Below, piece after piece: positions 1,417 to 56,026 of a DNA stretch of 64,000 nt; positions within the stretch are counted from its first letter, which is position 1, and each line of letters opens with the position of its first letter. Origin of the DNA: Patescibacteria group bacterium (lineage in GTDB: Bacteria; Patescibacteriota; Patescibacteriia; SBBC01; CAIJZX01); NCBI GenBank assembly GCA_038065275.1, contig JBBTRH010000013.1:32106-96105 (forward strand), in the 5' to 3' direction. The translations under genes were made by a program, and so were the position numbers. The notes beneath the pieces are model-generated. The model worked only from the letters and a program-made list of their open reading frames with translations, did no database searches and was not told where the DNA came from.

Positions 1417-2565
1417 CTACCGTAGCTCGTACGCCGGGGCGTATCCGGTCGCTGTTATTTGCGGTCGAATACGGTACATCGATTGGGTAATATCTACCAC
1501 CGCACACCCTGGGGCGGAAGATGAATTTTTCCGACTATTCAAGGTAATGTTGTTTTGGGTGTTGGCCTTGCAAACCGTACCGCTTCCATACGGACTAGTA
1601 CCGCCAAGAACATATTCGAAGTCACCGTTGCATCCGTCTGTATAATAGCTAGTACAATCATTAACTGCTCCGCTCGTGCATCGACTAATCGGATCGTACC
1701 CGTTTGGACAATAGGTTGCCGTTGATGCGGTATAGACGAGTACGCAGTCGACAAACGGCGCGGGTGATGAAGCCTTATCGAAACAGTACTTGGCAGTCGC
1801 AAGTTTTTGATCGTTAGTCCCAGCGCCTGAAACATCGACGGAGTAGAGATACTGCCCAAGACATTCATCCGAGTTCGCCTTACACACTTGGACTTGCCAG
1901 ATGCCCTTGCTCCGGTTACCCAAAACGATGGAATCGGTAACATTCACCTTCCCACTAAAATATCCCGCCCAGCCTGCCCCGGCTTGCTGGCCGTAGACAG
2001 CGGAGTTATCACCATTAGCATAAGCCGCAATGGCATCGCCGCTACTGCCGGTGCCGGCCAGATTATTGTTGACCACCAGCTTACCGGCCGGGGCAGTAAC
2101 GCCGCCGATCCCGATATTGCCGCCGTTCTTAGCCAGGATGAGGTTGCGCCAGGCAACGGACTCTTCGACCGCGCCGATCTCGGCGTAGGCGGGAGAGGCC
2201 TCGGAATGAATCCCAAGGTTGAGCTTCAGATTCTGGTTGGTGTAACCCTGGATAACCAGTTGGGTGGCGCGGTTACTGCCGCCATTGCTGTCGGCACGAA
2301 CGAACAGTGAGTTGCTGGTGCCGGGGCGAAGGACCAGGTCGCTACTGCCGGCAATATCCCGTCCGGCGTTGCCGATTTCCATGACGCTGTCTCCGGCCAG
2401 GCCCGGGACGATGGCAATCACCCCCTGGTAGACGCTGAGCTTGGCAAACGGTATGCCGCCGGGATTGGTGATCGGGCCGGCGGAGACTAAAGCAACCGAG
2501 CCGAGAAGGCCCAGCACAACTGACGCTGATATGGTTAGGTATTTTGACTGTCGTGATGTGTTCAC
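1417..2565 (-). CDS. secreted or membrane-anchored protein, paralog 1 (shared N-terminal module AGPIT..PFxKLxVYQGVIAxVP..VMEIGNAGRD, Cys-rich C-terminal domain)
   Basis: N-terminal hydrophobic anchor or signal peptide. The first ~90 residues are strongly conserved with ORF 2895..4334. About 16 Cys in the C-terminal 150 aa. GTG start. Confidence 0.6.
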   Translation of the reverse strand: MNTSRQSKYLTISASVVLGLLGSVALVSAGPITNPGGIPFAKLSVYQGVIAIVPGLAGDSVMEIGNAGRDIAGSSDLVLRPGTSNSLFVRADSNGGSNRATQLVIQGYTNQNLKLNLGIHSEASPAYAEIGAVEESVAWRNLILAKNGGNIGIGGVTAPAGKLVVNNNLAGTGSSGDAIAAYANGDNSAVYGQQAGAGWAGYFSGKVNVTDSIVLGNRSKGIWQVQVCKANSDECLGQYLYSVDVSGAGTNDQKLATAKYCFDKASSPAPFVDCVLVYTASTATYCPNGYDPISRCTSGAVNDCTSYYTDGCNGDFEYVLGGTSPYGSGTVCKANTQNNITLNSRKNSSSAPGCAVVDITQSMYRIRPQITATGYAPAYELR

Positions 2566-2597
2566 TATGACTACATCGTACCCGAAAACCAGGAAAT

Positions 2598-2706
2598 GTC
2601 AACCCCGTTAGAGGTGATGGTGGCTAGCAGAAAAAAACAGGCTTATCGAGTTCATCGGCTATACCGCGGTTAGCCCTATTTCGATTTCACCTCTAACGGG
2701 GTTGAC
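2598..2706. repeat. long inverted-repeat element, long variant (GTCAACCCCGTTAGAGGTGA ... TCACCTCTAACGGGGTTGAC; 20 bp arms, ~70 bp spacer)
   Basis: Perfect 20-nt inverted repeat read directly. Belongs to the CCCGTTAGA/TCTAACGGG family also seen at 11064, 34334, 36460, 50223 and 55503. Confidence 0.8.
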
Positions 2707-2894
2707 TATTCCCGGAGCATCCCCAGTATAGCTTGTGTTCTCCTGACCTTGACTAAAAAAATCGGTTTATTTACAAAGACAGGTGCCGCTGGTGATGGTC
2801 GTGCCGCAAGCGACGACCGAGGTGCCGCTGACGCCGAATAGATTTAATGGCGCAGATTATCGATCTCGGACGATCACGAACACGAGCGCCCGTG

Positions 2895-4334
2895 CTACAT
2901 ACACAAACAGTAGCGGGAGCCGACCTGATTTGCGCAAGTGGTGGACACTGACGCTTTTATCCAAGCGCCGATACATATTTGTCCAGCGGACGCGCAAGCC
3001 CCATCACAGGAACCAGAAGAAACCTCGGCACCGGTCACTATTTCGTAGGCGCCTGCTGTATTGCCTTTGGTGGTTCGGCCGACGAACCTCGCGGCAAAAT
3101 TATTACCGCCAGCTCCCGTGCCCTGCTGAACATAGAGCCCGTAAGTTGTTTGCCCCGTGGTCGCGTTCCCACCCTGTGCTTCAATGGCGGCCGGACCATT
3201 TGCCCATAAACCACTGCCCTCATTTGATCCATTGGCTGTGATCGCTGTACCCTTATTGAGAACATTATTGTTGTTATTTACCACCTCCAATGTCGCCCCA
3301 GACCTGCCAGCCCCGACCATTTTTGATGCGCCACTAAAATATCCGGCAAAACCTTGTGAGTTCTCCTGTTGAGCATAAATCGCCGATCCGGCGGCATTGT
3401 TATTATAAGTATCAACCGTATCTAAAACATTCCCGCCGTAACTAGCTGGACTAATGCCTCGCATCACTACAATTTCCGCCTGCGGCCAGACATTTGTCGG
3501 ACCACCCAAACTGACTGGCATTCCGGAAATATTACCGGCTGTTAGCACTTGCTGTAATGTCGGCGTAGCGCCCCCCGGGGGCCAAGAAGAATTACACACG
3601 CCACTTAGACAGAGCGATCCGACCGTCAGTTCGCCGGGGATATTTACTTTACCATTGGTGGAATCAATGGTGAGCCGTTCAAAATTATCATTAAAAATTC
3701 TGAAGTATTTATCGTTACTGTCAATTCTCCAGTCAAGAGTTCCGCCCGTGCCTTTTTGGATGGTCATTTCTCCGCCCTCAATACTGGCTGGAACTGCCGC
3801 GGTTAGCGTCAGGTAATTAGCTGTCAGTTGAGCGGTGTTGTTAAGTATTATGCTGGTAGTCGATGTATTGCCGGTGTCAAGTACTTGTTGGAGGTTTTGA
3901 GAACCCGCCCCCCCGCCTGGCCAGACATTGCGGCAGTCCGCGCCAATACATAGACGGCCGCCTTTAACGTCCCCAACTGTTTCTATTTTACCCGGGATGT
4001 TTAGGCTAGTAACCAGACCGTCTTTATAGAACTTGGCGTAGTTAACTGCCCCGGTATCCAACGATCCCGGCCGCAGGTAGATATCCCCGGTACTGGCGAC
4101 ATCCCGTCCGGCATTACCAATCTCCATCACCGCCGAGCCGTCGGCGGGCACAACCGCGATCACCCCCTGGTACACGCCGAGCTTGGTAAACGGCTGGTTG
4201 CCGGAACCGCCGGTGATCGGGCCGGCCACTACCGGCTGGACGGCGAAAAATATGGCCGCGGCCGCTAAGGAAGCCAGCGCCGCATTTCGGAAAATTCCGG
4301 TTTTTCGCTTTGTCTTAGCCGTAGCCATACGCAT
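2895..4334 (-). CDS. secreted or membrane-anchored protein, paralog 2 (same N-terminal module; internal duplicated LQQVL..GN and C..C..WPGGG repeats; Cys-rich C-terminus)
   Basis: N-terminal TM/signal. Conserved module is shared with 1417..2565. Internal tandem duplication (SQNLQQVLDTGNTST / TPTLQQVLTAGNISG; CIGADCRNVWPGGG / CLSGVCNSSWPPGG). Looks tail-fibre or adhesin-like. Confidence 0.6.
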   Translation of the reverse strand: MRMATAKTKRKTGIFRNAALASLAAAAIFFAVQPVVAGPITGGSGNQPFTKLGVYQGVIAVVPADGSAVMEIGNAGRDVASTGDIYLRPGSLDTGAVNYAKFYKDGLVTSLNIPGKIETVGDVKGGRLCIGADCRNVWPGGGAGSQNLQQVLDTGNTSTTSIILNNTAQLTANYLTLTAAVPASIEGGEMTIQKGTGGTLDWRIDSNDKYFRIFNDNFERLTIDSTNGKVNIPGELTVGSLCLSGVCNSSWPPGGATPTLQQVLTAGNISGMPVSLGGPTNVWPQAEIVVMRGISPASYGGNVLDTVDTYNNNAAGSAIYAQQENSQGFAGYFSGASKMVGAGRSGATLEVVNNNNNVLNKGTAITANGSNEGSGLWANGPAAIEAQGGNATTGQTTYGLYVQQGTGAGGNNFAARFVGRTTKGNTAGAYEIVTGAEVSSGSCDGACASAGQICIGAWIKASVSTTCANQVGSRYCLCM

Positions 4335-6410: not shown

Positions 6411-6803
6411 TTAGATTTTCATCATCCGACGACAGTTTTTGTGTCCGCAGCGGCATCGCACATCTTCGCCAAAGGCCATTTCGTATCCATAATCACTCGT
6501 GATCTCCTCGCCTTTGCAAATGGTCCGAATCGCGCGATCACCCATCCAGCGTCGATCAATGTGCGTATTGGGAAGGCAGGAATGGTTGATGAATCTAGCC
6601 GGAGGAGCATAGAGAATGTACCGGCCACGAGTAAACGCTGAAACATAGGTCTGTTCTTTTCTGGACAGTTTCTTTACCTCCGCGAGAGTTAATATTTTCG
6701 CGCCGATCCAGTGTAAAACAATTTCACCCTTACGAAAACTACGGTTAGCAAACGCGCCCTGTCCATGAATCTTTGACTTCTTCACCACGACGTCGGCGTT
6801 CAT
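6411..6803 (-). CDS. SET-domain protein (putative protein-lysine methyltransferase) embedded in the suf operon
   Basis: NHSCLPN, E..SDYGY and post-SET CRCGHKNC motifs. 130 aa, which is the minimal bacterial SET size. Confidence 0.8.
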   Translation of the reverse strand: MNADVVVKKSKIHGQGAFANRSFRKGEIVLHWIGAKILTLAEVKKLSRKEQTYVSAFTRGRYILYAPPARFINHSCLPNTHIDRRWMGDRAIRTICKGEEITSDYGYEMAFGEDVRCRCGHKNCRRMMKI

Positions 6804-21519: not shown

Positions 21520-21802
21520 TCACTAATTTACACTAAACTATGACTTAGTTCGACGCTTTTTCTAACGCATCTCTAGCTCGAACGTTCTTTCTCCACACTA
21601 ATTGCCTAAACCGTTCTTCGGAACGGCATGGCATCACAATAACCCTGCAAGGTATAGAGCTCCTAGTCAGAGCATCCTTGCAGGGTCATGCGCCGAAAGG
21701 TGTATGGGTGGTCGTAAGGCCATCGCTGGCTAGGGGCTTTGTGTATATACGCACGATACACAAAAACCCTTCCATGATCACCTATCAGAAAGGGAATTCT
21801 CT

Positions 21803-22132
21803 ATGGCTCTTATAAAATGTCCTGAATGCGGTACTGAAGTTTCAGACAAGGCGCTCCAGTGCCCGAAGTGCTCCTATCCGATCTCTACCGCACCATCTCA
21901 ACAGACTCCGGAAGATATCCAGACCATCCAGCAAACAAGCAAGCGATTAAAGAAACAAATCATCATTGCCATTGTGCTTATTATTGGCGGCATTATTTTA
22001 ATATCAACTGGCGCAAACGCAGATAAGGAAGCAACCAGGGCGCTACTGTTCACATTCGGCACACTAGCCGCCCTGCTCGGAGCCATCTGGTATATCATCG
22101 TCCGTATCAGGATTTGGTGGAATCACCGGTAA
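21803..22132 (+). CDS. zinc-ribbon (CPECG...CPKC) membrane protein with two TM helices
   Basis: N-terminal CxxC-x14-CxxC, then two hydrophobic helices. First gene of the low-GC island. Confidence 0.5.
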   Translation: MALIKCPECGTEVSDKALQCPKCSYPISTAPSQQTPEDIQTIQQTSKRLKKQIIIAIVLIIGGIILISTGANADKEATRALLFTFGTLAALLGAIWYIIVRIRIWWNHR

Positions 22133-22163
22133 TAAATATATCAACGGTAATTCACACGCGAAC

Positions 22164-22778
22164 GTGAATCCCCAAGGAAAGGCGCAACAATGGCTTGAAC
22201 CGGTACTGGACCAGGCGGCCAGAGTTTTGGTAAAGAACATCCTAAATGATCCAAAGCATCCGCGGTACATCACAGAGCGAGAAGCTGAATTGATCCATCG
22301 AGGCGTCGAGCAAGGAATCATCCAGATCGAGGGGAACATCTTCCGCCTGCCAACCACCAACAAAGGACGATATGACGCATTCACTCTGAACCGTGAGTAC
22401 TTCGTGCAGTTTGCGACCCTCGTTGACCTTATCACCGAACACGGCTACCCAGCTTCTGATTGCCGGTTTGAATACCACTTGATGGATATCTGCGTCTTTA
22501 AAGGTGGCCAGCCCTACATTTACATTGAAACGAAGGTCGGCGACCAGTCTTCGAAGAAGCTGATCGAGGAAATGACCAATACCTACGCGAGCCAGCTGGT
22601 GTCGTTCTTGGACAAACCGGATCGTGGGATCGATGCTTTGCGCAAAGCCAAGTACATATTTCGTGATCGTCCAAAATACTTCGGGGTGATCAACCCCAGC
22701 ATGAGATACTTCTACGAAGTGCATTATACCGAGACTGGTTTTTCCTTAGAAACCATTTCCGATCTTCCGAAAAACTAA
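22164..22778 (+). CDS. hypothetical protein
   Basis: 204 aa ORF in the low-GC island. No motif recognised. Confidence 0.4.
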   Translation: MNPQGKAQQWLEPVLDQAARVLVKNILNDPKHPRYITEREAELIHRGVEQGIIQIEGNIFRLPTTNKGRYDAFTLNREYFVQFATLVDLITEHGYPASDCRFEYHLMDICVFKGGQPYIYIETKVGDQSSKKLIEEMTNTYASQLVSFLDKPDRGIDALRKAKYIFRDRPKYFGVINPSMRYFYEVHYTETGFSLETISDLPKN

Positions 22779-22824
22779 CGGGGCAATAACTGAGGAAGAT
22801 ATCGTCTTCGTCTGGGCATATTCT

Positions 22825-23583
22825 TTATTTATTCTCCACGTTGTTCACCGCATCTCGATAGGCGCAATAATCACAATCCTCTCCAGCTGGCGGGATGGCT
22901 TTGCTATTTAAACAGGCATGGGCGTCAATAATGGCTTGCTCGACCCACGAATCATCGCCTTCGTAGGGTATGACCTTAATATCGAATTCCAGTTTCCCAT
23001 CGAATGCTTCGGCATCGCTATTACCATTGCAGTAAACGAAATATCCCGTATTAGAAACCTTGAACCCATTACGGCGAAATAGCCACTGGTAGACTTCCAT
23101 CTGCCGCTTGTACCCGATCTGCCAATCGGCATCAAGATTGACCTCGTCCTTCTTTGAGGTAGCCTTATAGTCGACGATGATCAGCTCTCCATTCGGACGA
23201 ACCCACAGGTCGTCTACTCCGCCAGTAATCTTGAAATTGGTATCGGCATGATGATATGTTACGCCCCGTCGTAACGAGTCCCGCCATTCATCGATTTTCT
23301 CATGTGCCAGCGGGATAGCATCGATCTTATACTTCTTTTGTAAAGGATGCTTTGTGCCCTTAGCGCGGTGGATATCAAATTCCCGCTTAAGAAGTTCATC
23401 AACGGCAGAATTGAGCGAAAACGGGTACCCTGGCGGTTGAGCTATCCCAAGTCGTCGATCTAAGTAGAAACATCGTGGACAGTTCAGGAAGAGGTCTATC
23501 TTTGAGCGACTGAGTCGAAACGGTTCGGTACTGGCCGGATCGTAGAGATTCTTGACTCTTTGTGGGGTGTAGTATTTGGACAC
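22825..23583 (-). CDS. Cas4/RecB-like PD-(D/E)xK nuclease with predicted 4Fe-4S cluster (no CRISPR locus nearby)
   Basis: N-terminal CPRC. Nuclease motifs GGVDDLWV (D) and IIVDYK (DxK). QMEVY (QxxxY). C-terminal C-x12-CDYC cysteine triad. Confidence 0.6.
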   Translation of the reverse strand: MSKYYTPQRVKNLYDPASTEPFRLSRSKIDLFLNCPRCFYLDRRLGIAQPPGYPFSLNSAVDELLKREFDIHRAKGTKHPLQKKYKIDAIPLAHEKIDEWRDSLRRGVTYHHADTNFKITGGVDDLWVRPNGELIIVDYKATSKKDEVNLDADWQIGYKRQMEVYQWLFRRNGFKVSNTGYFVYCNGNSDAEAFDGKLEFDIKVIPYEGDDSWVEQAIIDAHACLNSKAIPPAGEDCDYCAYRDAVNNVENK

Positions 23584-23662
23584 GTTCGTTAGATTTGCAT
23601 TATCGTTTCTGGTTCCATCGGTTATCTAAATTTCGCCTTCGAAGATGAGGATTTTGGGCATG

Positions 23663-23968
23663 TTATCGTTGCCACCACCGAATAAACTTTCCGATAAGCC
23701 AAACGAAGCCACCAAACACAGACAAACTAAAGCCCTCCGCATAACGCGCACTTTGAAAGCTTAGGTTTGTTTTGTCGGATCCCATAAAATACAATCCCGA
23801 GAAAGCAATTAATGCACCAATAATCATTACAATTTTCCCAAATTTGCTACTCGAAGTTGAAACAGAAGTCCGACCACGAAAGAATAAACTGATAATAAAA
23901 AATATCCCGCTAATAACTAGGCCTTGGAAAAAACTTTTATCAAAGAAATCCATACTATTCGCTTTCAA
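23663..23968 (-). CDS. small membrane protein (2-3 TM)
   Basis: 101 aa hydrophobic ORF downstream of hsdS. Overlaps the hsdS end by 14 nt. Confidence 0.35.
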   Translation of the reverse strand: MKANSMDFFDKSFFQGLVISGIFFIISLFFRGRTSVSTSSSKFGKIVMIIGALIAFSGLYFMGSDKTNLSFQSARYAEGFSLSVFGGFVWLIGKFIRWWQR

Positions 23969-25031
23969 ACTCCTCTCTCAAAATTCCCCGCTTCAACGCC
24001 GTAAAATCCGCCGCCTGCTTCGCCTGCAATTCCTGAAGTGCGCGGGATTTTTCGGAAAGCGCATCAAGCTTTTCAACAATCATTTTTTGTTCTACAAGGG
24101 AAGGAAGCGGAATATCCAATTTTGAATATTGTGAAATCCAATAACGTTTATGTGAAGAGTGATCTAGGTTAATAGTTTGCATCAAGTAAAACAAATACCT
24201 TGTATCTGCAACCTCCCTCTTGGCATGTAATATTTTCATTGCTGACGATTTTACCTTGAATGGAAAATCTACGTATTGGATTGCTGTAGTAAAGTCATCA
24301 AATATTATTACCGGCAGCTTTTCTTTTGGAAAGATATTTTCTGTTTCATTTGTGTTTCCTAAAATAAAAGTTTTGCCCGCGGTCAACACCGGCGTTTTAA
24401 ACGAATCAATGTAATTTTTGGAACGGACTATGTATTTGCCTGGTTGTTCATAATCTAAGGCATCCTCCAGTTTTATTTTCTGCCACCCCTTCTCTTCTCC
24501 CTCCTCAAACACCCCATGCAATGCCGCGGGCAACAGTTGCGCGGCAAGTCTCGCCGACTCCGCACGAAGTCGGGATGTTTCGTCAATTTTTGCAAATTGC
24601 TGTTCTATTTTCGCGACGATCTTCTTTTGTTCGACGAGGGGTGGGACTTTGACTTCCAAATTTGAATATTCTGAAATCCAGTAACGTTTATGGGTTGCAT
24701 GATTAACATGCAACGTCTGCAATAACAAATAGAAGTATTTAGGATCCGCAATGCCCTCTTTCGGGTGTAGAATCTTCATTGCCGAAGATTTTACCTTGAA
24801 TTGAAAGGTGACAAATTTAGTCGCGGTGGTGAAATCATCAAAGATAATTACTGGCAGCCTCTCGGAGGGAAATATATTGTCCTTTTCGGCAGTATTCCCT
24901 AAAACAAAAGTTTTTCCAGCCGTTAGCACAGGAGTTTGATAATCCTTATTGTAGTGCTTAGTTTTTACGATATACTTTGTAGGCTGCTCGTAATCTAGCA
25001 CTTCACCGAGTTTTTTTGTGGGGTAGGTCAT
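23955..25031 (-). CDS. hsdS: type I restriction-modification specificity subunit HsdS
   Basis: Two duplicated target-recognition halves (YEQPxKYIVxxKxY...VLTAGKTFxLGNT...LPVIIFDDFTTA repeated) separated by a coiled-coil spacer. Confidence 0.85.
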   Translation of the reverse strand: MTYPTKKLGEVLDYEQPTKYIVKTKHYNKDYQTPVLTAGKTFVLGNTAEKDNIFPSERLPVIIFDDFTTATKFVTFQFKVKSSAMKILHPKEGIADPKYFYLLLQTLHVNHATHKRYWISEYSNLEVKVPPLVEQKKIVAKIEQQFAKIDETSRLRAESARLAAQLLPAALHGVFEEGEEKGWQKIKLEDALDYEQPGKYIVRSKNYIDSFKTPVLTAGKTFILGNTNETENIFPKEKLPVIIFDDFTTAIQYVDFPFKVKSSAMKILHAKREVADTRYLFYLMQTINLDHSSHKRYWISQYSKLDIPLPSLVEQKMIVEKLDALSEKSRALQELQAKQAADFTALKRGILREEFESE

Positions 25032-25952
25032 TTATTCGTCGTCTTTTTGGTACTTGATACGATTTTCATTTTTTTTAATTAGGTGTAAACATGCCAACAA
25101 GGTCGCATAGTAAAAGTAAAACATCCAACTAAGCCAAACCGTCTTATCATAATTTGTTTTCTGTTGCTTATTGGCGTGACGAATTCCAAAGTTGTTAGCT
25201 ATATTAAATAGATCGCTTTCATCCTTTGAGTTAAGAACTTTTTCAATTTTTGGTTTTAAGTGCTCAAAACAATCAGCAAGAGCACGGATCGCATCCTCTC
25301 GGTCACTTATTGTTGAGCCATATTTTCTAAATTTGTTTGCCGCATGTTCCATTTTTTCCCTTACCGTTACGTCGCCTGTGGGGACCGGCGATTCAGAAAT
25401 ATTTCGTAAGTGGGATGGTAACAAAGTCAATATTTCACCTTTTGTACTTAGCTCAAAACCGTCTCCATAGTCGTTAAGGAATTGGTTTATCTCTTGAGCA
25501 AATTCAATGGGGCCTAATCCCAAATCATCAAAACGTGTATAGTGCCAACCACAACTATTCCAATTATGGTAAGTGGCGCCTTGTTCAAGGGGTAATGAAA
25601 TATGATCAAAAAAGAATTCGATAATATCGAACAAATCATCTTCGGAATATCCCTTATACTTCTCCGAAAACGGCCAAACATTTGCCCTCCGAAGCCTACG
25701 AAGTACATATCCTTCGATATTTGTTCCGACTTTCCCTGGAATATCCCCGTCTGTACAGTTAGTGCCAAGGAATTCCTGAAAGTACCCTCGCGTTGAAAAG
25801 TCTTGCCAAATACTAAAAACAATTTCTTTCAAAGAATCGAGAGAGATTTTTTGTGAGTGGTCTTTTCTTAAAGAATAGTATTTTCTTGCCACAATGGTGA
25901 TGCTATGGATTGCAATACTTTTTGTAGAGCTTACGGGTAGTAACCACAGCAC
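25032..25952 (-). CDS. uncharacterised protein nested in the type I R-M operon (candidate defence/Abi component; REKMEH resembles an HEPN Rx4H motif)
   Basis: 306 aa. Start abuts the hsdS start (25031/25032). No known domain recognised. Confidence 0.45.
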   Translation of the reverse strand: MLWLLPVSSTKSIAIHSITIVARKYYSLRKDHSQKISLDSLKEIVFSIWQDFSTRGYFQEFLGTNCTDGDIPGKVGTNIEGYVLRRLRRANVWPFSEKYKGYSEDDLFDIIEFFFDHISLPLEQGATYHNWNSCGWHYTRFDDLGLGPIEFAQEINQFLNDYGDGFELSTKGEILTLLPSHLRNISESPVPTGDVTVREKMEHAANKFRKYGSTISDREDAIRALADCFEHLKPKIEKVLNSKDESDLFNIANNFGIRHANKQQKTNYDKTVWLSWMFYFYYATLLACLHLIKKNENRIKYQKDDE

Positions 25953-26790
25953 TCTCCACTTTGAGACTTTTTAGATAATCTTCGCTTGGAATCTTATAGT
26001 CTTTGTGCACAAACTTATTTGCCTCCACTCTTATTTGTTCGATATCATCGCATACCTGTTCAAGAAGTTCTTTGTCCTCGTGAAAGTCTGTAGATTTTGA
26101 TCGTATATTTGACAGAAGTAATTCGAGTCCACGATAACGGCCTTTGTTTTTATCATACCAAATTTCATGATTACCTTGATTGTACGAGCCATTAACGATC
26201 TTCGGAAATACAATTTCGCAAATTCTAACCACCAACGCCTCTAACAATTTTCGACTAAGTATTATTACTGCGAGCAGCTGTCCATTTAAATAGGACTCAT
26301 TAATCTCTTTGCGAATATAATCAAGAAACAAATCATTAAAATCATATGGAAGGTAGTCCGGCCCAACAAAATCTTCTTCAATTTCTAGAACTGATAATTT
26401 TTTACTTGCATTATCGAAATTAACACCCGTTGCCCGAAGAAGGTTAACTATTAATTGATGCCAGTTTTTAATGTACTCGCCATAATAGTTCCATCCATCG
26501 TTTCGGGTACCGATTATTTTTGAGTCAAAAACAATTTCTTGAAGTATTGGGAGGTATTTGTATGAAGGAACCGTTTGCATGAAGTTAGCAAAATCATAAT
26601 TTGGTTCACTCATGAAGGAGTACAATGGAATACTATATGGCGATCCTCCTGCAGCTAGTTCTGAATACTTTCCACTGTTGTATTCTATCCCGAACTTCTT
26701 GAGAAAAATTTTAAAGTCTTCCGCACTATAGCAGTGTATGTATAATCGCTCAGCGTACACCCAGATCTCTTGGTTGAGTTTAAGACTCAT
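25903..26790 (-). CDS. uncharacterised protein nested in the type I R-M operon (candidate defence/Abi component; DUF4145/HEPN-like is possible)
   Basis: 295 aa. Start overlaps the hsdM stop (ATGA, 26787-26790). C-terminal helical region with RVEANKFVH. Confidence 0.45.
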   Translation of the reverse strand: MSLKLNQEIWVYAERLYIHCYSAEDFKIFLKKFGIEYNSGKYSELAAGGSPYSIPLYSFMSEPNYDFANFMQTVPSYKYLPILQEIVFDSKIIGTRNDGWNYYGEYIKNWHQLIVNLLRATGVNFDNASKKLSVLEIEEDFVGPDYLPYDFNDLFLDYIRKEINESYLNGQLLAVIILSRKLLEALVVRICEIVFPKIVNGSYNQGNHEIWYDKNKGRYRGLELLLSNIRSKSTDFHEDKELLEQVCDDIEQIRVEANKFVHKDYKIPSEDYLKSLKVESAVVTTRKLYKKYCNP

Positions 26791-28208
26791 AAAAGTTTCT
26801 CAATTTCGGTCAACATTACCGAAATATGACTCTCCGTATTTTGCATTTCTTTTAATAGCCCCTTAGGAGTTTTATGATCGGTCGCAATTCCAGCGACCGG
26901 ATTCTTACAATCCAAATTGTAATTCCGCTTCTGAATTTCTTTGATCGACACTTTCCACGCATGCTCATTCGTTTTCCGATTCTTCCACCATACCTTCACT
27001 GGTTCAAACTCTTCGCTTCGGATCGGCCGTCCTTTCGTGTATTGCTTCATGCCTTCTGGCAACGGCAATTCGTAGTACCAAATCTCTTTGGTCGGCGTGC
27101 CTTTTTGGAAAAACAGCAGATTCGTATTGACGCCAGCATACGGATTAAAGACGCCTTGCGGGAGACGAACGATCGTTTGGAGATTACATTTTTCGAGAAG
27201 CTCCCGTTTAATTGCCGTTTTCACGCCCTCGCCAAAGAGCGTTCCGTCGGGCAGGACAATCCCCGCTCGGCCGGTTGGCTTCAGTAAATTCATGAACAGC
27301 ACGAGGAAAAGGTCGGCGGTTTCTTTCGTCCGAAATTCGCGCGGGAAGTTCTGCTCGGTGCCATCCTTTACATATCCTCCAAACGGTGGATTTGCAAGGA
27401 TAATATCAACACGGTCTTTTGGACCATACTCGCGCAATGGCTTCGAGAGGGCATCGCCACGATGAATCTGGTCAGGCGCTTCAACGCCGCGCAGAATAAG
27501 GTTTGTCACCGCGAGCGTAAACGGGAGTTGCTTTAATTCGTTCCCATGCAGCGATTGTTGCAGACGCTGCTCTTCCTTGCGCGTTTTGACCTGGGTACGA
27601 ATATGTTCAAGAGCACTGACAAGGAATCCGCCAGTCCCACAGGCCGGATCGAGAACGATTTCACCGAGCTTCGGGTTAACCATCTCAACCACAAATTTTG
27701 TAAGCGCTCGTGGAGTATAGAATTCTCCGTAGTTTCCAGCGCTTTGCAGCTCCTTGAGGAGATGTTCGTAAATATCATTGAACTCGTGTCGGTCCCCTTG
27801 CTTATTAAAATCGACTTCGTTCAGTTTATTGACGACTTGCCGGATGAGCGTTCCGGACTTCATGTAATTATAAGAGTCAGCAAAAACCTCTTTGATCAGG
27901 AGACCACGCGTGTCGTCGGTTGCGACCTTTAGATCTTTTAATCCGGGAAAAAGTTGATTGGTAATAAAATTCAACAAGTCGTCACCAGTTATTCCTTCCG
28001 GATCTGCGGCCCAGTTTCGCCAGCGAAGTTTTTTTGGAATTGCTGAAACATACTTCGGATTAACGAGTTCAGCAAATGTTTCTTGATCATCAATAATTTT
28101 CAAGAACAACATCCAGACGAGTTGATTCAACCGCTGTGCGTCACCGTCGACGCCCTGGTCTTTCCACATAATGTCTTGTATCGCCTTGATAACGGCTTGA
28201 AGTGACAT
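26787..28208 (-). CDS. hsdM: type I restriction-modification N6-adenine DNA methyltransferase HsdM
   Basis: Motif I LDPACGTGGF and motif IV LANPPFGG. HsdM N-terminal domain. Confidence 0.92.
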   Translation of the reverse strand: MSLQAVIKAIQDIMWKDQGVDGDAQRLNQLVWMLFLKIIDDQETFAELVNPKYVSAIPKKLRWRNWAADPEGITGDDLLNFITNQLFPGLKDLKVATDDTRGLLIKEVFADSYNYMKSGTLIRQVVNKLNEVDFNKQGDRHEFNDIYEHLLKELQSAGNYGEFYTPRALTKFVVEMVNPKLGEIVLDPACGTGGFLVSALEHIRTQVKTRKEEQRLQQSLHGNELKQLPFTLAVTNLILRGVEAPDQIHRGDALSKPLREYGPKDRVDIILANPPFGGYVKDGTEQNFPREFRTKETADLFLVLFMNLLKPTGRAGIVLPDGTLFGEGVKTAIKRELLEKCNLQTIVRLPQGVFNPYAGVNTNLLFFQKGTPTKEIWYYELPLPEGMKQYTKGRPIRSEEFEPVKVWWKNRKTNEHAWKVSIKEIQKRNYNLDCKNPVAGIATDHKTPKGLLKEMQNTESHISVMLTEIEKLL

Positions 28209-28211
28209 AGA

Positions 28212-30569
28212 TTAGGCGTAGAGTGTTTCTTGAATTTTGTTGATGACGACGAAGTATTGCTCTCGACCACCGAAGATATCATTCACGATTTGCACCGGCG
28301 TGCCGAATGATGTAAACGGCGACACCTCAAGGTCTTTAATATCATCAATCGCCGTGATGCCTTGATCTTCATATTTCTCGAGTAAGGCATCAATCACCTC
28401 GCGGGCTTTCCCTTCGTACTTCGCAAAGTAATCGAGCTTCTTCACATTATTCGCCCGTTCTTTCCGGGTCAGCGGCGTTTTTCCGTACGCAACGTGACAA
28501 ATGAGGTCAAACGGGTCCAGACCTTTGCCAACTTCAGCTGCGATGTCATCAAAGAACACACCCCGTTGTTCAAGTTCGGTGATGATCGCCTCTTTCTTGT
28601 CAGCTTTTGTCCAGGCAGTCAAAAACTCATCAAGCGATCGATATTCTTTGAGGATATTCTGTTTCGTGTAATCCTTCAGCGATTCCGTAATGAGCTTCCC
28701 ATCTTCACCAATATACTGAACGCGTTCGTTAATCACCTGAACCGGAACGTCGCGCACTACGTACTTTTTGACTGGCTCACCGCCAATCGGGGGCCATGGA
28801 CTAATAAGGGTACCTCCTGGTTCTTGCCCGGGTGTCCCTGTACCTCCGTTCTCCGGGGGTTCTACTGGCGGAACAATTGGATCTCCTCCTTTGGGCTCGT
28901 AAATAACAACTGGATCACCGTCAAAGTCAGGATCGGCAAACAGTTCCGTCACGCCCCGGAAGTCGAGAATCGTAAAGAATAGTTTTCCGTAATCTTCGCG
29001 CACACGGGTGCCGCGTCCGATGATCTGCTTGAATTCGGTCATGGATTGAATATTTGCATCCAGGACGATCAGCTTGCACGTCTGCGCATCGACGCCCGTG
29101 GTCATCAGTTTTGATGTCGTGGCAATCACCGGGTATGGACTTTCTGGATCGATAAAGTGGTCAAGTTCACCAGCCGATTCTGGGTTATCGCCCGTAATCC
29201 TGACGACGTAGCGATGATTTGCTCCAGCGAGTTCCGGGTTCGCGTTGACGAGCGCCTGTCGCATTCGTTCAGCGTGATCGATGTCGACGCAGAAGACAAT
29301 AACTTTCTGCATCGGATCGGTGGCCTGCATGTATTCGGTAATCTTCTCGGCCACCAGTTTCGTCCGCTCATCAATCACCAATTCTCGATCAAAATCTTTT
29401 CGGTTGTAGATACGATCTGGAATCTCATTCCCATGAACATCCGTCTTTCCTTGTTCTGGGCGGTAGCCCTCAACATCGCGATCAAACGTCACACGTATGA
29501 CTTTGTACGGCGCGAGAAATCCATCATCAATGCCCTGGCGGAGTGAATAGGTATAGATTGGTTCACCAAAATACGTTTGGGTCGAGATATCTTTCGTTTC
29601 TTTCGGCGTAGCTGTTAACCCAATCTGGGTCGCGCTTTGGTAGTAGTCTAAGACATCGTGCCACAAGGCATTTTCCCGTGCGCTGCCGCGATGGCACTCG
29701 TCGATAATGACGAGATCGAAGAAGTCAGGTGAAAACTGCTTGAACGTCTGTTTCTCTTCTTCAACTCCGGTCACGCTTTGATACAGCGCGAGATATATTT
29801 CGTAGGATTTATCTGCGTTGCGATTTTTGATCTTGTACATCTTATCGCCAAACGGCTTGAAGTCGTTCATGACCGCTTGGTCAGCTAAAATGTTCCTATC
29901 CACGAGAAAGAGGATGCGTTTGGCTGTTTTTGCTTTCCATAACCGCCAGATGATTTGAAATGCCGTATACGTTTTCCCCGTTCCGGTCGCCATAACCAAC
30001 AGCAAGCGTTTTTGCCCTTTCGTAATTGCTTCGATGGTTCGATTAATGGCGACGCGTTGAAAATATCGCGGCTCTTTTCCGTTCAGCTCCTGGAAGTAGT
30101 CTTGTTCAACGATCGATCGGGCGTCTGAAGTAATTTGATGGTTGGCAAGATACTGCTGATAGAGGTCTTCCGGACTTGGAAATGCATCTAAAGCGATTTC
30201 TTCTTCGTGCACTTTTCCCTTCGGAAGACGAACGTGGGTTAAGAATCCGCTTCCGTTCGAACTGTAGACGAAAGGAATATCAAGCACATCTGCGTAGCCG
30301 AGGGCTTGCTGCATTCCATCACCCACGCCGTAACTCGCATCTTTCGCTTCAATGATTGCCAATGGGAGATTATTTTTGTAGTAAAGAATGTAGTCCGCGC
30401 GCTTTTTTTCACCTCGTGTCACGGTTTTACCACGAACAATGATCCGGCCAGCGGTGAACGAAACCTCTTCCCGAATTTGGGTCTGCAAATCCCATCCAGC
30501 TTTTACCAAAGCAGGGGTTATATATTTCGTACAAATATCGCGTTCGGACAATGATTCTTTAGCCACCAT
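28212..30569 (-). CDS. hsdR: type I restriction endonuclease subunit HsdR (compact form)
   Basis: N-terminal PD-(D/E)xK (AIIEAKDA). SF2 helicase motifs MATGTGKT and IIDECHRG. Pro/Gly-rich linker before the C-terminal domain. Confidence 0.9.
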   Translation of the reverse strand: MVAKESLSERDICTKYITPALVKAGWDLQTQIREEVSFTAGRIIVRGKTVTRGEKKRADYILYYKNNLPLAIIEAKDASYGVGDGMQQALGYADVLDIPFVYSSNGSGFLTHVRLPKGKVHEEEIALDAFPSPEDLYQQYLANHQITSDARSIVEQDYFQELNGKEPRYFQRVAINRTIEAITKGQKRLLLVMATGTGKTYTAFQIIWRLWKAKTAKRILFLVDRNILADQAVMNDFKPFGDKMYKIKNRNADKSYEIYLALYQSVTGVEEEKQTFKQFSPDFFDLVIIDECHRGSARENALWHDVLDYYQSATQIGLTATPKETKDISTQTYFGEPIYTYSLRQGIDDGFLAPYKVIRVTFDRDVEGYRPEQGKTDVHGNEIPDRIYNRKDFDRELVIDERTKLVAEKITEYMQATDPMQKVIVFCVDIDHAERMRQALVNANPELAGANHRYVVRITGDNPESAGELDHFIDPESPYPVIATTSKLMTTGVDAQTCKLIVLDANIQSMTEFKQIIGRGTRVREDYGKLFFTILDFRGVTELFADPDFDGDPVVIYEPKGGDPIVPPVEPPENGGTGTPGQEPGGTLISPWPPIGGEPVKKYVVRDVPVQVINERVQYIGEDGKLITESLKDYTKQNILKEYRSLDEFLTAWTKADKKEAIITELEQRGVFFDDIAAEVGKGLDPFDLICHVAYGKTPLTRKERANNVKKLDYFAKYEGKAREVIDALLEKYEDQGITAIDDIKDLEVSPFTSFGTPVQIVNDIFGGREQYFVVINKIQETLYA

Positions 30570-30668
30570 AGCAACAATTTACTCCTTTTTCGCTAAGAAA
30601 TCAAGGAAAACAGATGTCGGAGTGAGCACGGTGACGTAAGCCACCGTGCTCAAAACCTTTCGGTTATC

Positions 30669-30959
30669 TCAACGACATTCGACGAGGCTAAGGAGGTTAT
30701 TTGTCTCCCGCCCATCCGAGACGGTACGAACGAATGGGTTCAGGTTTCGTGAGACTGCCGTTTGGACATACACCTTATGCCCGAAGGCATCTGTCACATA
30801 GGCAATCCCATGCTGGTCTTTGATCCAATTGTATAATTGGATCCGCGACCACTTTCCCTGAATCCCGGTATCGTCTTCAACCCACCCGAGAAACGAGATC
30901 GCCTCATGAGGGTTGTCATGGTAACCGTTATCCTTATTGATGCAGGTAATCCGGATCAT
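30669..30959 (-). CDS. DUF3892 family small protein
   Basis: MIRITCINKDNG... and C-terminal ...NNLLSLVEC match the DUF3892 pattern as remembered. Confidence 0.5.
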   Translation of the reverse strand: MIRITCINKDNGYHDNPHEAISFLGWVEDDTGIQGKWSRIQLYNWIKDQHGIAYVTDAFGHKVYVQTAVSRNLNPFVRTVSDGRETNNLLSLVECR

Positions 30960-30971
30960 ACGATTCGAGGG

Positions 30972-31214
30972 TTAGTGTTTCGTGTCATGGGACGAGCGCG
31001 GGTCGTTACCGGGCGAGACTGTATCGCTATCCCGAATCGACCCCTTCGGGCTGTGAATACGGACTTCACCGCCACCGCTATTTGCTGACATCTCTTTGGC
31101 GGCTTTCTCGGCTTCTTTCTGAGTGTCAAAGTACCCGCTGACGCGACCAGCGCCCTCGCGCTTTGCACCCCATTTATCGATCTCTTTGTTCTTCGTGACG
31201 TGATAGTTGGCCAT
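30972..31214 (-). CDS. DUF2188 family small protein (ORF-track extension to 31490 is probably not translated)
   Basis: MANYHVTKNKEIDKWGAKREGAGRVSGYFDTQKEAEKAAKEMS...GNDP matches the DUF2188 consensus as remembered. Confidence 0.5.
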   Translation of the reverse strand: MANYHVTKNKEIDKWGAKREGAGRVSGYFDTQKEAEKAAKEMSANSGGGEVRIHSPKGSIRDSDTVSPGNDPRSSHDTKH

Positions 31215-31526
31215 AGTATTGTATGACGTAGCTAATGATAAGATCCATGACGTTTGATTCGGAAGGATTGTTTCCCAAGCATGGGCGGAACCAACCAGGC
31301 TAGATTGTTTGTGATAACGGGCAAATAGATAAGCAAGTAAGAGTGTGGTATAATCCGAGTACCAAAAAGTCTGCCATCCTAGCGATTTTTTTGGCCTGAC
31401 AGGGGCGTTAACCCTGTTCGGATTTGAAGGAACATGGTCGTCTCGACCATGTTCCTTTGCTTCATAGTCGAGCGCCGTGACTTCTAGCAAATAGGGTAGC
31501 AGGGTGGCTTGAAAATGTCAAAGAGC

Positions 31527-31564
31527 AATGTACAGTTGACAGTACATTATTATCATGGTAGGAT
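31527..31564 (+). promoter_or_regulatory. sigma70-type promoter (TTGACA-17-TAGGAT) with an overlapping inverted repeat AATGTACA-N7-TGTACATT (candidate XRE operator)
   Basis: TTGACA at 31536-31541. 17-nt spacer. TAGGAT at 31559-31564, 6 nt before the ATG at 31571. Palindrome flanks the -35. Confidence 0.5.
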
Positions 31565-31570
31565 ATCCAC

Positions 31571-31909
31571 ATGGACATATCCCCAACCATGATGCTTCAT
31601 AGGGGTATCGGGAGGAAAATTCGTGAACGCCGGAAGGAGCGCAACCTACGTCAAGCCGAACTAGCTGTAGCAATACACTGTTCGCGTGCAACCTTGGTCA
31701 ATGTTGAGAGTGGGCGACAACAGCCCACGTTGGATTTGCTTTACAAACTTTCATCTCAGTTGCATTGCTCATATATAGATTTACTACCCACTGAAGAAGA
31801 GATTGAAAAAATGAAGACCGAAGCGGGGTCTGCTATCATGACGCCCGAAAAGGAAAAAAGTATCATTTCTGATTTAAAGGCTAAAGCAAAGGAAAGGGAG
31901 GTGAATTGA
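31571..31909 (+). CDS. XRE-family helix-turn-helix transcriptional regulator
   Basis: HTH_3 pattern LRQAELAVAIHCSRATLVNVESGRQQP. Confidence 0.8.
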   Translation: MDISPTMMLHRGIGRKIRERRKERNLRQAELAVAIHCSRATLVNVESGRQQPTLDLLYKLSSQLHCSYIDLLPTEEEIEKMKTEAGSAIMTPEKEKSIISDLKAKAKEREVN

Positions 31910-32424
31910 AAATGACAACACCAGTAATAAATATTGAGCAGGAAACGAAAAAAGTCCGGGTAGCCTGTGGAGCTACCACAATACCCGTTGACGTTAGAAA
32001 GATCATTGGGTCATTAGGTCTCAAGTTAATGTCAACTGACCTGAATGATTCACTATCAGGAGCTTTCTTAAGGAAAGAAAAAATTGTGGTTGTAAACAAG
32101 AATCACTCATTACTCCGAAAAAGATTTACCATTGCCCACGAAATTGGACACTACAAATTACACGAAACTGAGAATGACAAAGAATTTATTGATGGGATAT
32201 TTAAAAGAGAAAAAGGGGCAAACGCTAACACTCTAAAAGTTGAGATGGAAGCAAATCAATTTGCCGCCTCCCTCTTAATGCCAAGGGACGAAATTATTCA
32301 AGAGTTCCATAAGCAGGATCCAGTTACAGGCGATTACATTACTGATTTATCGGAGAAGTTCAAAGTGAGTCATGAATCTATGAACTACCGGTTAATCAAT
32401 TTAGGGCTTACAGTTCCGCAATAG
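31906..32424 (+). CDS. ImmA/IrrE-family metallopeptidase (DUF955)
   Basis: HEIGH zinc motif (FTIAHEIGHYKLH). Overlaps the XRE gene stop (ATGA). Classic XRE-ImmA pair. Confidence 0.78.
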   Translation: MKMTTPVINIEQETKKVRVACGATTIPVDVRKIIGSLGLKLMSTDLNDSLSGAFLRKEKIVVVNKNHSLLRKRFTIAHEIGHYKLHETENDKEFIDGIFKREKGANANTLKVEMEANQFAASLLMPRDEIIQEFHKQDPVTGDYITDLSEKFKVSHESMNYRLINLGLTVPQ

Positions 32425-36643: not shown

Positions 36644-39600
36644 TTATTTGTTTAGCTTATCAATCTCCCCCATTATTCGTCCGGTTTCGAGTAGCGCCAC
36701 GATCATCTGCTGATAATGCTCAATGTCTTCGTTGGTCAGGGTACGGCCTTTGCGGTCTTTCAGCCACTTTTGCGCCGGTTGATACCCGCCGATATAGAAA
36801 TTCCATGCTAATTCAGGAACTTGGCCGAAATACTGCTCGGTATTAATGAACACTTTGTTGTCTTTGTATGCTATTTTCTCGACCATATCCGATCCGGTCG
36901 CCGGATAGGTTGTAATGAATTTATTCACCTGCGGCGATTCGAGCAGGTGGAGCAACCGCAATTCGGTCCCTAGTGCTACTAGTTTTTTGAAAGTTATTGC
37001 ATCTTTCGGATACGGTACTCTAGGAAAATCAATCTTTAGAAATTCTTTGTATTTATCGCGATAACTCGGTGAGTGTAAAACGGCGTAAATATAATCAAGG
37101 ATATTTTCCGGCGTTACTTTACCGACCCTTTTTTCTATATCGCTAACAATTTCTTTTATTAGATTTGGTGTTTTTGTGCCATCTTCATAATAGAGGTACA
37201 ACGGAAAAAAGCGAGAATTATCAAAAGGAGAAATGGCGTCTTTGTCTAGTATCTTGTTAGAAACAAAAACATTGTTCACGTTCCCTCTGCGCGAGTTTCT
37301 TACTGTAATCAATGAGAGATTTGCATTCAACATGCTTTTCATTAAAGGAGATCTCGGGTAGGCCATGAAACCCTTTGTTTTTCCGGAATAATAGGTAAAG
37401 CGTTGTTCAAATGGATGATAGGTAACCTGCACGATTTGGCCTTTCCCCCCTTGAACATCTTCCCTAGCTAGATTAACCGTCCAATCCCTTCCATCGTCAG
37501 CTATATCGTATTTGGATCGTAGTTCTTTTATTTCAAGGTTGGTAAAATCGTTCAAAACATTGGCAATCTCATTGTTAGTAAATTGATATACCAGACCATC
37601 TCGCTTAGTTTGTATTCCAGAGTTAAATTCATTAAAAACTTCGTCGATTTTCAATCCTTTTCGATATTCTTCTTCATCGTTAAAATCTTTCGGCACAAAG
37701 AAATAATTCGGCTCCGGACAATCGAGTTTTACCCATTTGAGATTTTTAATATCGCTTTCATTAAGCTTGGTGAATTTATCTTCCCGCTTACCGTAAATTT
37801 CCGCGTGATGAACCTGGCCAAGGCCGGTTTTCTCTTTCGCGGTGCGGACAAAGATGGATATCGCGACGCCCTGCTGGATGTCGAACACGTTCTCGTCTTG
37901 TCCCCCGTCCGGAGCTTGTTCTTTCTTTTTGGAGTTGCCGTGCAAGTCAAGAATGTAAACATCGTCAAATGTTTCCAACAGGTGCTTTCGCATCTGGCGG
38001 TGCGTAATGCCGTCGATATAGGAATTATTGGTGATCATGGCGACGACGCCGCTCTTGTTTTTCTCGATAAAATGTTCGGCGTAGCGAATAAACTTAATGT
38101 AATCGTCGTCCAGGTTGATTTTCCGCTCGCCTAGTCCGCGTTTATAGTCCTGGATCAAATTCTGTATCCACGCGCCCTTGTTCGACGAGCTGACGCTGTA
38201 CGGCGGATTGCCGATAACCACCATGATCGGTGTGTCGTTCTTGATGACCGCCGCGCTTTTCGCTTCCTCGGCGATCGCGCCGCCGAAACCCAGGCTGAAG
38301 ATTTCGCCCTGGGGTTTTGGATCCTCAAGCGAATTCGTGAGAAATACTTTCAGGCGGGTCTTGCCGTTTCGTGTTTCATTAAAGTGCTTGAACCCGGTAT
38401 CCCGCAGCTTCATGCTGATCTTGAGGTGCGCAATCGTATATGGCACCATCATCAGCTCGAAGCCATGCAATCGTGGTAGTAGCTCATGGTGTACATATGA
38501 CGGCCAGCCGCCGCCTTGCCCGTGTTCCTGATACGCCTGGTATATCTTGTCGATCGTGGCGCTGATGAACGTTCCGGTGCCCGCCGCAGGATCAAGGATT
38601 TGTACCTTATGCTTCCCGTCATCTAGCTTAGCTGTATCCGCCAAGCCCCGCGCCAAGCCGAAATCCCGGCGCAGAATCTCGTCAACAGAGCGGATGATGA
38701 AATTCACGACCGGCAGCGGCGTATAGTACGCGCCCATCCGTTTGCGTAAGACAGGATCGTATTCTTTTAGGAAGTCCTCGTAGAAATGAATGATCGGATC
38801 GGCGTCGTCCAGAAACTCCTCGACCAGTTTCTTGATATCGGCGTGCTGGAACACCTCGCAGAGCTCGTCCACAATGTAGCCGAGCCGCTTGTCGAAATTT
38901 ACCCCGGCGATATGGTCGAAGAATTGTTTTAGGAACGGATTCGACGCGGGCACCAGCTGGTCGGCTTCCTGTCGCGAAAACGTGGCGGGAGTTTCATCGT
39001 TATACCGCGCCGTGAACAGTCCGTACACCAGGGTCTGGGCATACATGTCGGCAAACGCGTCAATGGTCAGGTCGTGGACCAGCATTTTCTTGATCGCTTC
39101 GTACAACTGCATAATTTCCGTGTTTTTTTCCGATTCATGCGACAGAAACTGCCGCGCGTTGTCGCGAATGCGCTGACCTTTGCCGCCCATGATCTTAGCC
39201 AGGTGTTTTCCCGATTTGATCGGTTCTTTGTGCGACTGCGCGAAATCCACCGAGGTTTTCGCCAGATGTTCGTACTCGGCCGGAACTGGCGTGATGGTGC
39301 GCTGTTTTAGGTCGTGCTTCGCGATTACGATCGGCTCTTCATACCGCAAGCCGTTGCGATAAAAACGGAATTCGACATAATCCGTCAGCACCAAATTGGC
39401 GTAGCCGTAATATCGCGCCATTTGTTCCGACTTTTCGATTTTATCTAGCGGCACGCCGATATCTTTAACCTCAATGTACAAAATCGGCACGTCGTGGCTG
39501 AGCACAACAAAATCAGGTTTATTGCCCTGTCGAGCTTTCGCGTCATGCAAAATATGGACATTTTTGACCGCGGCAAAAACCTCTTTTAGCAGAGTTTCGA

Positions 39601-55741: not shown

Positions 55742-56026
55742 ATGTTAGTCCTGACTCGTAAGCTCGGCGAGATTATCCGCGTCGGGGATGCGGTGAAAAT
55801 CACGATCCTCGAAATAAGATCCGGGCAGGTTAAGTTGGGCATTGAGGCTCCGCCCGAGATAAAAGTACATCGGGAGGAGGTCTACGCTCGTATTCAGGAG
55901 AACCGCCGCGCCGGGCGAAAATCCAGCGCCGGACCGGATCAGCCGTCTACCGCTCGACCTGACGACACGACTCGCGGCCCCCTGTTCCTCCGCCTGATCA
56001 AGGGCCGCAAGACTAAGCCCGCCTAA
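55742..56026 (+). CDS. csrA: carbon storage regulator CsrA (long C-terminal tail variant)
   Basis: [48 protein letters not shown] is the canonical CsrA core. Confidence 0.9.

Follow-up and report, generated by a model that had tools for sequence, protein, structure and literature searches.

Paralogous exported proteins with a conserved N-terminal module and strain-variable distal domains in Patescibacteria: candidate surface fibres or adhesins

Host recognition by ultrasmall Patescibacteria is little known outside Saccharibacteria, where type IV pili are implicated, and two neighbouring genes in a 64,000-nucleotide (nt) stretch of a Patescibacteria group bacterium genome (GCA_038065275.1, contig JBBTRH010000013.1, positions 32,106 to 96,105; hereafter the window) raise the question of what exported proteins that begin alike and end differently are doing in such an organism. 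The two proteins, termed P1 and P2 here, are encoded by adjoining, co-oriented genes on the minus strand (Table 1). Judged by their sequences, we give roughly an even chance to the reading that they are surface fibres or adhesins, secreted and particular to this lineage, with a common docking or assembly module and recombination-exchanged tips. The original prediction, made from the DNA letters and a list of open reading frames (ORFs), had placed both ORFs next to each other on one strand and credited them with a common N-terminal part of about 90 amino acids (aa) and complete divergence past it. The ORF calls agree, and the common part resolves into a module of 53 aa, hereafter the N-module, preceded by a signal peptide of 29 aa in P1 and 37 aa in P2. 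By BLASTP, residues 24–83 of P1 and 32–91 of P2 aligned over 61 aa with 62% identity (E = 3e-17), and since this strong match begins past the hydrophobic segment, it is not a generic signal-peptide similarity. The only other match was the short Y(A/G)QQ..G(W/F)AGYFSG (E = 0.005), and otherwise no similarity between the two proteins was detected by BLASTP, as the predicted divergence had it. Neither a likeness confined to the signal peptide nor an enzyme family match (Pfam, NCBIfam), the two outcomes that the prediction had held against itself, was observed.

The N-module has the consensus GP[IV]T...KLxVYQGV...EIGNAGRDIASTGxIYLRPG (53–54 residues), and the segment upstream of it was examined in the 66 family representatives that match the profile from its first position. 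All 66 have Ala at −1 and one of A, V, T, S, L or I at −3, 61 have GP[IV]T as the mature N-terminus, and the first 12 residues of family representatives held on average 2.3 Lys or Arg residues, followed by a hydrophobic core. P1 and P2 have one hydrophobic segment each, upstream of the cleavage site. The N-terminus of both looks like a classical cleavable signal peptide of the Sec/signal peptidase I type, and what had first been taken for a hydrophobic anchor has every feature of such a signal instead. The proposed check for signal peptides and sortase signals thus returned a Sec-type signal and no sortase signal, neither an LPxTG-like motif nor a second hydrophobic segment being found in P1 or P2, whose C-termini are ...YELR and ...CLCM. 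A lipobox is absent from both, with Gly at position +1 and the first Cys at residue 228 (P1) or 129 (P2), and no SLH, CWB2 or LysM wall-binding domain was detected in P1 or P2 (Pfam, NCBIfam, E ≤ 1) or in 108 relatives. The class III signal of type IV pilins was not found in either protein; the mature N-terminus GPITGG is polar, and the hydrophobic segment precedes the cleavage site. If anything, anchoring would come from the N-module and not from the hydrophobic segment.

How the distal parts behave between strains was seen by comparison with a sister strain, represented by the syntenic locus L010 (GCA_964359265.1) and the contig L009, both of which keep the suf / 86-aa / 479-aa / 422-aa arrangement and appear to derive from Hainich groundwater. 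The end of P2 and most of P1 have been replaced as cassettes between these near-identical strains (Table 1, DNA identity to L010 by segment). At the protein level, P2 and its orthologue are 100% identical at residues 21–400 and 20–32% identical in the last 60 residues, and the DNA breakpoint at nt 3091 corresponds to residue 415, within the FAARFVG junction motif described below. P1 and its orthologue are 85–95% identical in the first 60 residues and 10–50% beyond. Since the swapped P2 tips are still homologous (about 30% identity), the event was a replacement by a divergent allele and not a deletion. Of the earlier proposal that P1 and P2 are diversifying surface, adhesin or receptor-binding proteins, the diversification is borne out by the replaced P2 tip and P1 body, and the adhesin or receptor-binding role is something that we infer.

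We then asked how far this build extends. Neither protein gave a significant match to Pfam, NCBIfam, PHROGs or PDB sequences, the best Pfam hit being EGF_CA on the P2 tip (E = 0.17). A word-indexed search with P2 returned 14 homologues, all unannotated and P1 among them, and all 14 have a signal peptide followed by GPITGGxGNxPFxKLGVYQGVIxxVPGxxGDSVMEIGNAGRDIASTGSIYLRPG; the mean column identity of these 14 was 78% in the module versus 26% over the full length. A 54-position profile of the module, searched against 1.84 billion representative proteins, matched 151 clusters at E ≤ 1e-3, of which 61 passed E ≤ 1e-10; the module began no further in than residue 70 in 125 of 136 good matches. The module profile A1, built from 14 sequences with P1 and P2 included, scored these two at 97.0 and 103.5 bits, respectively; proteins P0002–P0016 scored 104–116 bits in the 1.84-billion-protein search, and some of them are also in A1. 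The relatives are 230–1190 aa long and very heterogeneous in architecture, 108 family members gave no meaningful domain in Pfam, and a literature search brought up no description of the N-module family. Named sources are metagenome-assembled genomes (MAGs) of Patescibacteria and Candidatus Kerfeldbacteria, the latter being the single name that a taxonomy look-up of ten representatives gave. Two source MAGs are labelled 'uncultured Gammaproteobacteria', probably wrongly, and the bacterium that carries P1 and P2 is an uncultured groundwater member of the Patescibacteria, probably of the Kerfeldbacteria. P1 and P2 are members of an undescribed, unannotated exported family that is so far confined to Patescibacteria, probably to Kerfeldbacteria.

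The genes of this family occur in arrays. The window and 15 other fetched loci with N-module genes were scanned with a local hidden Markov model and BLAST, and in 10 of the 16 loci two or three N-module genes stand together on one strand. They are direct neighbours in every case but L008, in which a single unrelated gene separates members of the array. In L001 a gene of type B (the type of P2) is followed by one of type A (the type of P1), as in the window. Many of the arrays adjoin LemA and M48 peptidase genes; the pair in the window does not, and no further N-module genes were found elsewhere in the window. A second secreted family, likewise unannotated, which we call fam2, flanks three N-module genes, usually beside LemA and M48 peptidase genes, and the six-gene order is common to L004, L006 and L012. 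The blocks with fam2 and N-module genes lie at 5037–12159 of L004, 2423–9726 of L006 and 4199–11766 of L012, and fam2 also occurs in L005, L007, L008 and L003; the window has no fam2 gene. Its members show a signal peptide, Y.EP...LN.S..Q.K.GSL.IG, CLN...C..W and a C-terminal CGDG.C...E....C..DC, and have the motifs CLNxxxCxxxW and AGYF in common with N-module proteins. A relationship between the fam2 N-terminus and the N-module was considered and rejected (hhalign probability 0.1%). PT-HINT, InlB B-repeat or FN3-like domains occur in some fam2 proteins, and a PQQ-propeller domain was found in one N-module protein of L008. The InlB B-repeat, FN3-like and PQQ-propeller domains are known types of extracellular or adhesion module and count in favour of surface fibres or adhesins.

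Between the N-module and the C-terminal domain, P2 contains a duplication (residues 99–164 versus 210–276, 35% identity over 68 aa, E = 4e-10), in which both units carry Cx4CxxxWPxGG and LQQVLxxGN. The original prediction had called it a tandem duplication; the duplication stands, but the units lie about 45 residues apart and are not strictly tandem. Stalk units of the P2 type were found in most family members, with the pattern …EGGE…W..D…RFRI…ERL.ID…G…LC.G……C…W……TPTLDQVL..GN, and represent a reusable, beta-rich element of a stalk rich in Gly, Ala, Thr and Asn. The distal domain is announced by a junction motif, [YFW][AGS][AG]x[FLY]xG; in 19 of 21 members examined, the first Cys of that domain follows 27–52 residues behind the motif. 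Both ends are Cys-rich, as predicted; the count of about 16 Cys that had been given for P1 is not, as P1 and P2 have 10 Cys each. Those of P1 all lie in residues 228–354, and those of P2 are distributed as two in each stalk unit and six in the last 37 residues.

The end domains fall into several classes. In the alignment, the type A domain (about 160–180 aa; 'YELR' domain in P1) has six invariant Cys residues, further Cys residues that always occur two together, and ELR-COOH as its unvarying C-terminus. The type B domain is a knot of about 40–60 aa with the spacing C-x3-C-x4/6-C-x11-16-C-x8-10-C-x-C. A third class of about 290 aa carries a GSGLDADxLDG motif, which is responsible for matches to PHROG tail proteins, and a further class consists of long proteins with 5–8.5% Cys. 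The even Cys counts together with the invariant and paired Cys residues of the YELR domain fit extracellular disulfides. The P2 tip was also tested as an epidermal growth factor (EGF)-like domain and failed (EGF_CA in Pfam, E = 0.17, 12.6 bits versus a cutoff of 27).

Structures were predicted by AlphaFold2 (AF2) from a 73-row alignment for P1 and a 15-sequence alignment for P2. The P1 model had a mean predicted local distance difference test score (pLDDT) of 75, in which the YELR domain was all-beta with a pLDDT of about 90 and the N-module consisted of short beta strands with a pLDDT of 74–81. With the P1 model as query, the best Foldseek hits had E = 1.1 in PDB and E = 0.027 in BFVD (template modelling score 0.1–0.2), neither of them within the threshold of 1e-3, and profiles of the N-module and the YELR domain had no match in PDB.

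If P1 and P2 are secreted surface fibres or adhesins, the N-module would hold different paralogues to one common partner, which might be a component of the cell envelope or, if they form an oligomeric fibre, one another. The distal domain, variable and facing outward, would bind a target, plausibly the surface of a host cell because, to our knowledge, all cultivated Patescibacteria are episymbionts that grow on other microbes. Recombination at the edges of the conserved module and of the junction would swap distal parts among strains and thereby alter binding or antigenic specificity. Surface retention, oligomerisation and ligand binding are the presumed steps of this scheme. Proteins that are exported, modular, arrayed and replaced in their distal domains between near-identical strains have the look expected of host-recognition or antigenically selected surface molecules. 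A more specific version, which we hold to be doubtful, is that the N-module is a lineage-specific co-assembly domain joining two or three side-by-side paralogues in a hetero-oligomeric fibre, which would be a Sec-dependent, phage- and pilus-independent attachment organelle of Kerfeldbacteria-type Patescibacteria whose host is set by the swapped disulfide-rich tips.

Several observations weigh against fibres or adhesins. Concerning the fibre shape, the AF2 model of P2 had a pLDDT of 41.8 and was unusable, and the stalk of P1 was poorly modelled. The module was internal in 8 of the 136 good matches, and this position in about 6% of the relatives is a misfit with a role that needs a free N-terminus. 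That the proteins stay on the cell is pure conjecture, as they have none of the known anchors (wall-binding, S-layer-homology, sortase or lipid), and they might simply be released; expression, cleavage and surface location are likewise predicted. Finally, mosaicism is not exclusive to P1 and P2, as a patch of sufD (7360–6884) is only 72% identical to L010 and the window carries a SET-domain gene (6411–6803, Pfam SET E = 2e-15) that L010 lacks, having about 76 nt at that place.

Of the alternatives, we consider it unlikely that P1 and P2 are purely structural envelope subunits (surface (S)-layer, sheath or matrix), in which the N-module would serve lattice formation or self-assembly and the variation would serve evasion of phages or predators. 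They are exported, acidic (isoelectric point 4.9–5.5) and rich in Gly, Ala, Ser, Thr and Asn, and paralogues with a common assembly-type module in multi-gene arrays of conserved order would suit such a role. The cassette replacement also resembles that of Clostridioides difficile, in which S-layer cassettes switch from strain to strain by recombination. However, classical S-layer proteins are usually Cys-poor, unlike the disulfide-rich tips of P1 and P2, and the family's architectures and lengths are too heterogeneous for a typical lattice former. Gram-positive wall-protein families (Cwp/SlpA of C. difficile with CWB2, SLH proteins of Bacillus) resemble P1 and P2 in having a signal peptide, a common anchoring-type module, a variable domain, arrays and cassette replacement. 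They differ in that neither SLH nor CWB2 was detected in P1 or P2 (Pfam), which instead have a single module of about 54 aa of no known fold, and Cys-rich distal domains.

Released polymorphic effectors or bacteriocin-like proteins, in which the conserved N-terminal part would serve export or delivery and the junction would mark a swappable C-terminal 'warhead' against competitors, are in our estimate quite unlikely. Polymorphic toxins have demarcating motifs of this kind, VENN in CdiA and DPxGL in Rhs, and P2 resembles CdiA-CT, Rhs and pretoxin-HINT proteins in that a conserved junction motif precedes its variable C-terminal domain, which is abruptly replaced at the strain level, from complete identity upstream to 20–32% in the tip. 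The absence of a detected cell anchor would also agree with release, and a pretoxin-HINT domain ends one fam2 member (L004 9219–11309) that adjoins N-module genes of a related locus. Nevertheless, no toxin domain was detected in P1, P2 or the 108 relatives (the PADLOC library was not searched), and neither protein has a two-partner, type VI or type VII secretion context. No small immunity-type ORF lies between the variable P2 tip and the next gene, the gap being 110 nt in L010, and the tips, 40–160 aa long, are small disulfide knots or beta domains and not enzyme-sized.

Domesticated or remnant phage tail-fibre genes (prophage or tailocin) are very improbable: fibre-like motifs (NIGIGxxxPxxKLxV, AGYFxG, and LDADxLDG in relatives), matches of 19 of the 108 relatives to phrog_25563 and of a few to tail or tail-fibre PHROGs, and a non-significant BFVD list rich in tail-fibre-like models speak for them, but the best PHROG hit of P1 or P2 had an E-value of 0.49, tblastn against 50,697 phage genomes found nothing, a pattern scan of 2.9 million IMG/VR contigs for the most conserved motifs of the N-module confirmed no relative, Sec signal peptides are universal in the family, and the neighbouring genes have housekeeping roles (sod and suf in the window, LemA and M48 peptidase at other loci) and include no phage genes. 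A phage origin of P1 and P2 is largely refuted by these searches and this context, and the tail-fibre likeness that had been noted is one of style, with no significant match of either protein in PHROGs, phage genomes, IMG/VR, PDB or BFVD. Receptor-binding fibres of phages (T-even gp37/gp38, lambda Stf, Mu fibre) do have the plan proposed here for P1 and P2: they dock by a conserved N-terminal part, continue in a beta stalk of repeats and end in a variable tip that is swapped by recombination at conserved junctions. Gly-rich motifs similar in style and, in some relatives of P1 and P2, the LDADxLDG-type motif of PHROG tail proteins are further points in common; P1 and P2 differ from phage fibres in having no detectable homology, Sec signal peptides, disulfide-rich tips and a chromosomal location with no virion module nearby.

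Type IV pilins and minor pilin operons are similar to the pair in having co-oriented paralogues with a conserved N-terminal part and differing, disulfide-bonded C-terminal parts, but P1 and P2 do not have the class III signal (G|FTLxE) and their conserved part is not a hydrophobic helix. Type IV pili are the best-established host-attachment organelles of Patescibacteria. Because P1 and P2 do not have the defining features of phage fibres, Gram-positive wall proteins, LPXTG proteins, lipoproteins, type IV pilins or EGF proteins, theirs is a new unannotated family implementing a known design. Its N-module, junction motif and two tip types are candidates for binding studies and population genomics, and an annotation gap is filled by two new domain families, of which one folds with confidence.

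Table 1. Features of the P1–P2 locus in window coordinates, and DNA identity of window segments to the sister-strain locus L010 (res, residues)
Feature	Coordinates	Strand	Description
P1 gene, type A	1417..2565	-	ORF; 382 aa, GTG start; signal peptide, N-module, stalk, junction motif, 10-Cys 'YELR' domain
P1 signal peptide	2479..2565	-	res 1-29, ...ALVSA|GPIT
P1 N-module	2320..2478	-	res 30-82; 86.7% DNA identity to sister strain
P1 stalk	1972..2319	-	res 83-198, includes GGNIGIGGVTAPAGKLVVNNN; AF2 confidence low
P1 junction motif WAGYFSG	1951..1971	-	res 199-205
P1 C-terminal 'YELR' domain	1420..1950	-	res 206-382; 6 invariant Cys and two extra pairs; ends ELR-COOH
P2 gene, type B	2895..4334	-	ORF; 479 aa, ATG start; signal peptide, N-module, two stalk units, G/N/T-rich region, junction motif, 6-Cys tip ending CLCM
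P2 Sec-type signal peptide	4224..4334	-	res 1-37, ...QPVVA|GPIT
P2 N-module	4065..4223	-	res 38-90; 62% identity to P1
P2 stalk unit 1	3843..4040	-	res 99-164; LCIGADCRNVWPGGG...LQQVLDTGN; internal repeat E 4e-10
P2 stalk unit 2	3507..3707	-	res 210-276; LCLSGVCNSSWPPGG...LQQVLTAGN
P2 first junction-type motif FAGYFSG	3330..3350	-	res 329-335; common to P1, family-wide
P2 second junction motif FAARFVG	3078..3098	-	res 413-419; sister-strain DNA similarity ends inside, nt 3091
P2 terminal 6-Cys tip	2898..3077	-	res 420-479; C-x3-C-x6-C-x12-C-x8-C-x-C
Promoter-like site of P1	2575..2602	-	TTGACA-16-TACGAT, ends 9 nt before GTG
Promoter-like site of P2	4340..4368	-	TTAGCA-17-TATACT, ends 5 nt before ATG
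Inverted repeat	2589..2715	.	29-nt arms 2589-2617 and 2687-2715, 90% complementary, 69-nt spacer
Flank	11000-7480		99.6% DNA identity to L010
suf genes and most of P2	6387-3091		96.6% DNA identity to L010
Last ~64 P2 codons and intergenic region	3091-2604		no DNA similarity to L010 detectable
P1 promoter, signal peptide, N-module	2604-2350		86.7% DNA identity to L010
Rest of P1	2350-1433		no DNA similarity to L010 detectable
P1 3' end and downstream	1433-1105		76% DNA identity to L010

P1 is identical to the NCBI entry 'hypothetical protein AAB402_03505, Patescibacteria group bacterium', save for a later start in the NCBI record; the GTG start is favoured here because the orthologue has a full signal peptide. 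P2 has a homologue, P0001, with 89% overall identity. The pair is flanked by sod and the suf operon (sufBCDSU), with the SET-domain gene nearby. No Shine-Dalgarno sequence is visible at the start of P1 or P2, and each gene has a promoter-like site whose spacing to the start is the same in the sister strain; this spacing suggests that both mRNAs are leaderless or near-leaderless.

An inverted repeat with a promoter-like site lies between the two genes, as the original prediction had noted, and the promoter-like sequence of P1 (TTGACA-16-TACGAT, 2602..2575) overlaps its proximal arm. The whole intergenic region folds with z = −5.0, and nothing in Rfam matched the repeat. The sister strain has no repeat at this position and keeps the P1 promoter as TTGACT-N17-TATACT; the repeat arm was absent from 16 of 16 fetched loci. 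A second copy was found at about 55505–55612, upstream of csrA (55742–56026). The two copies have arms of about 17–20 nt in common that are nearly identical, GACCCCGTTAGAGG[T/C]GA / TC[A/G]CCTCTAACGGGGTTGAC, the lone difference (T/C) being offset by A/G in the opposite arm, and their interiors of about 70 nt are unrelated. Each copy sets a TTGAC box upstream of a gene, P1 in one case and csrA in the other. The repeat could be a small repeated palindromic element resembling a miniature inverted-repeat transposable element, a pair of operator sites or an RNA hairpin, with an arm that supplies the TTGAC −35 box, and it is not part of the protein family. A mechanical ORF of 383 aa (54556–55707, minus strand) spans the second copy at its 5' end, and its true start probably lies further downstream.

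Elsewhere in the window, a low-GC stretch at about 22000–32000 (39–48% GC versus 54–62% elsewhere) contains a type I restriction R subunit (28212–30569), and a Type ISP restriction-modification enzyme (36644–39688) lies near it; the stretch and the restriction genes are probably a horizontally acquired defence region. A LOOT RNA motif (Rfam RF03000) was found at full length at 21603–21724 on the plus strand, with a score of 80.9 bits versus a gathering score of 46.4.

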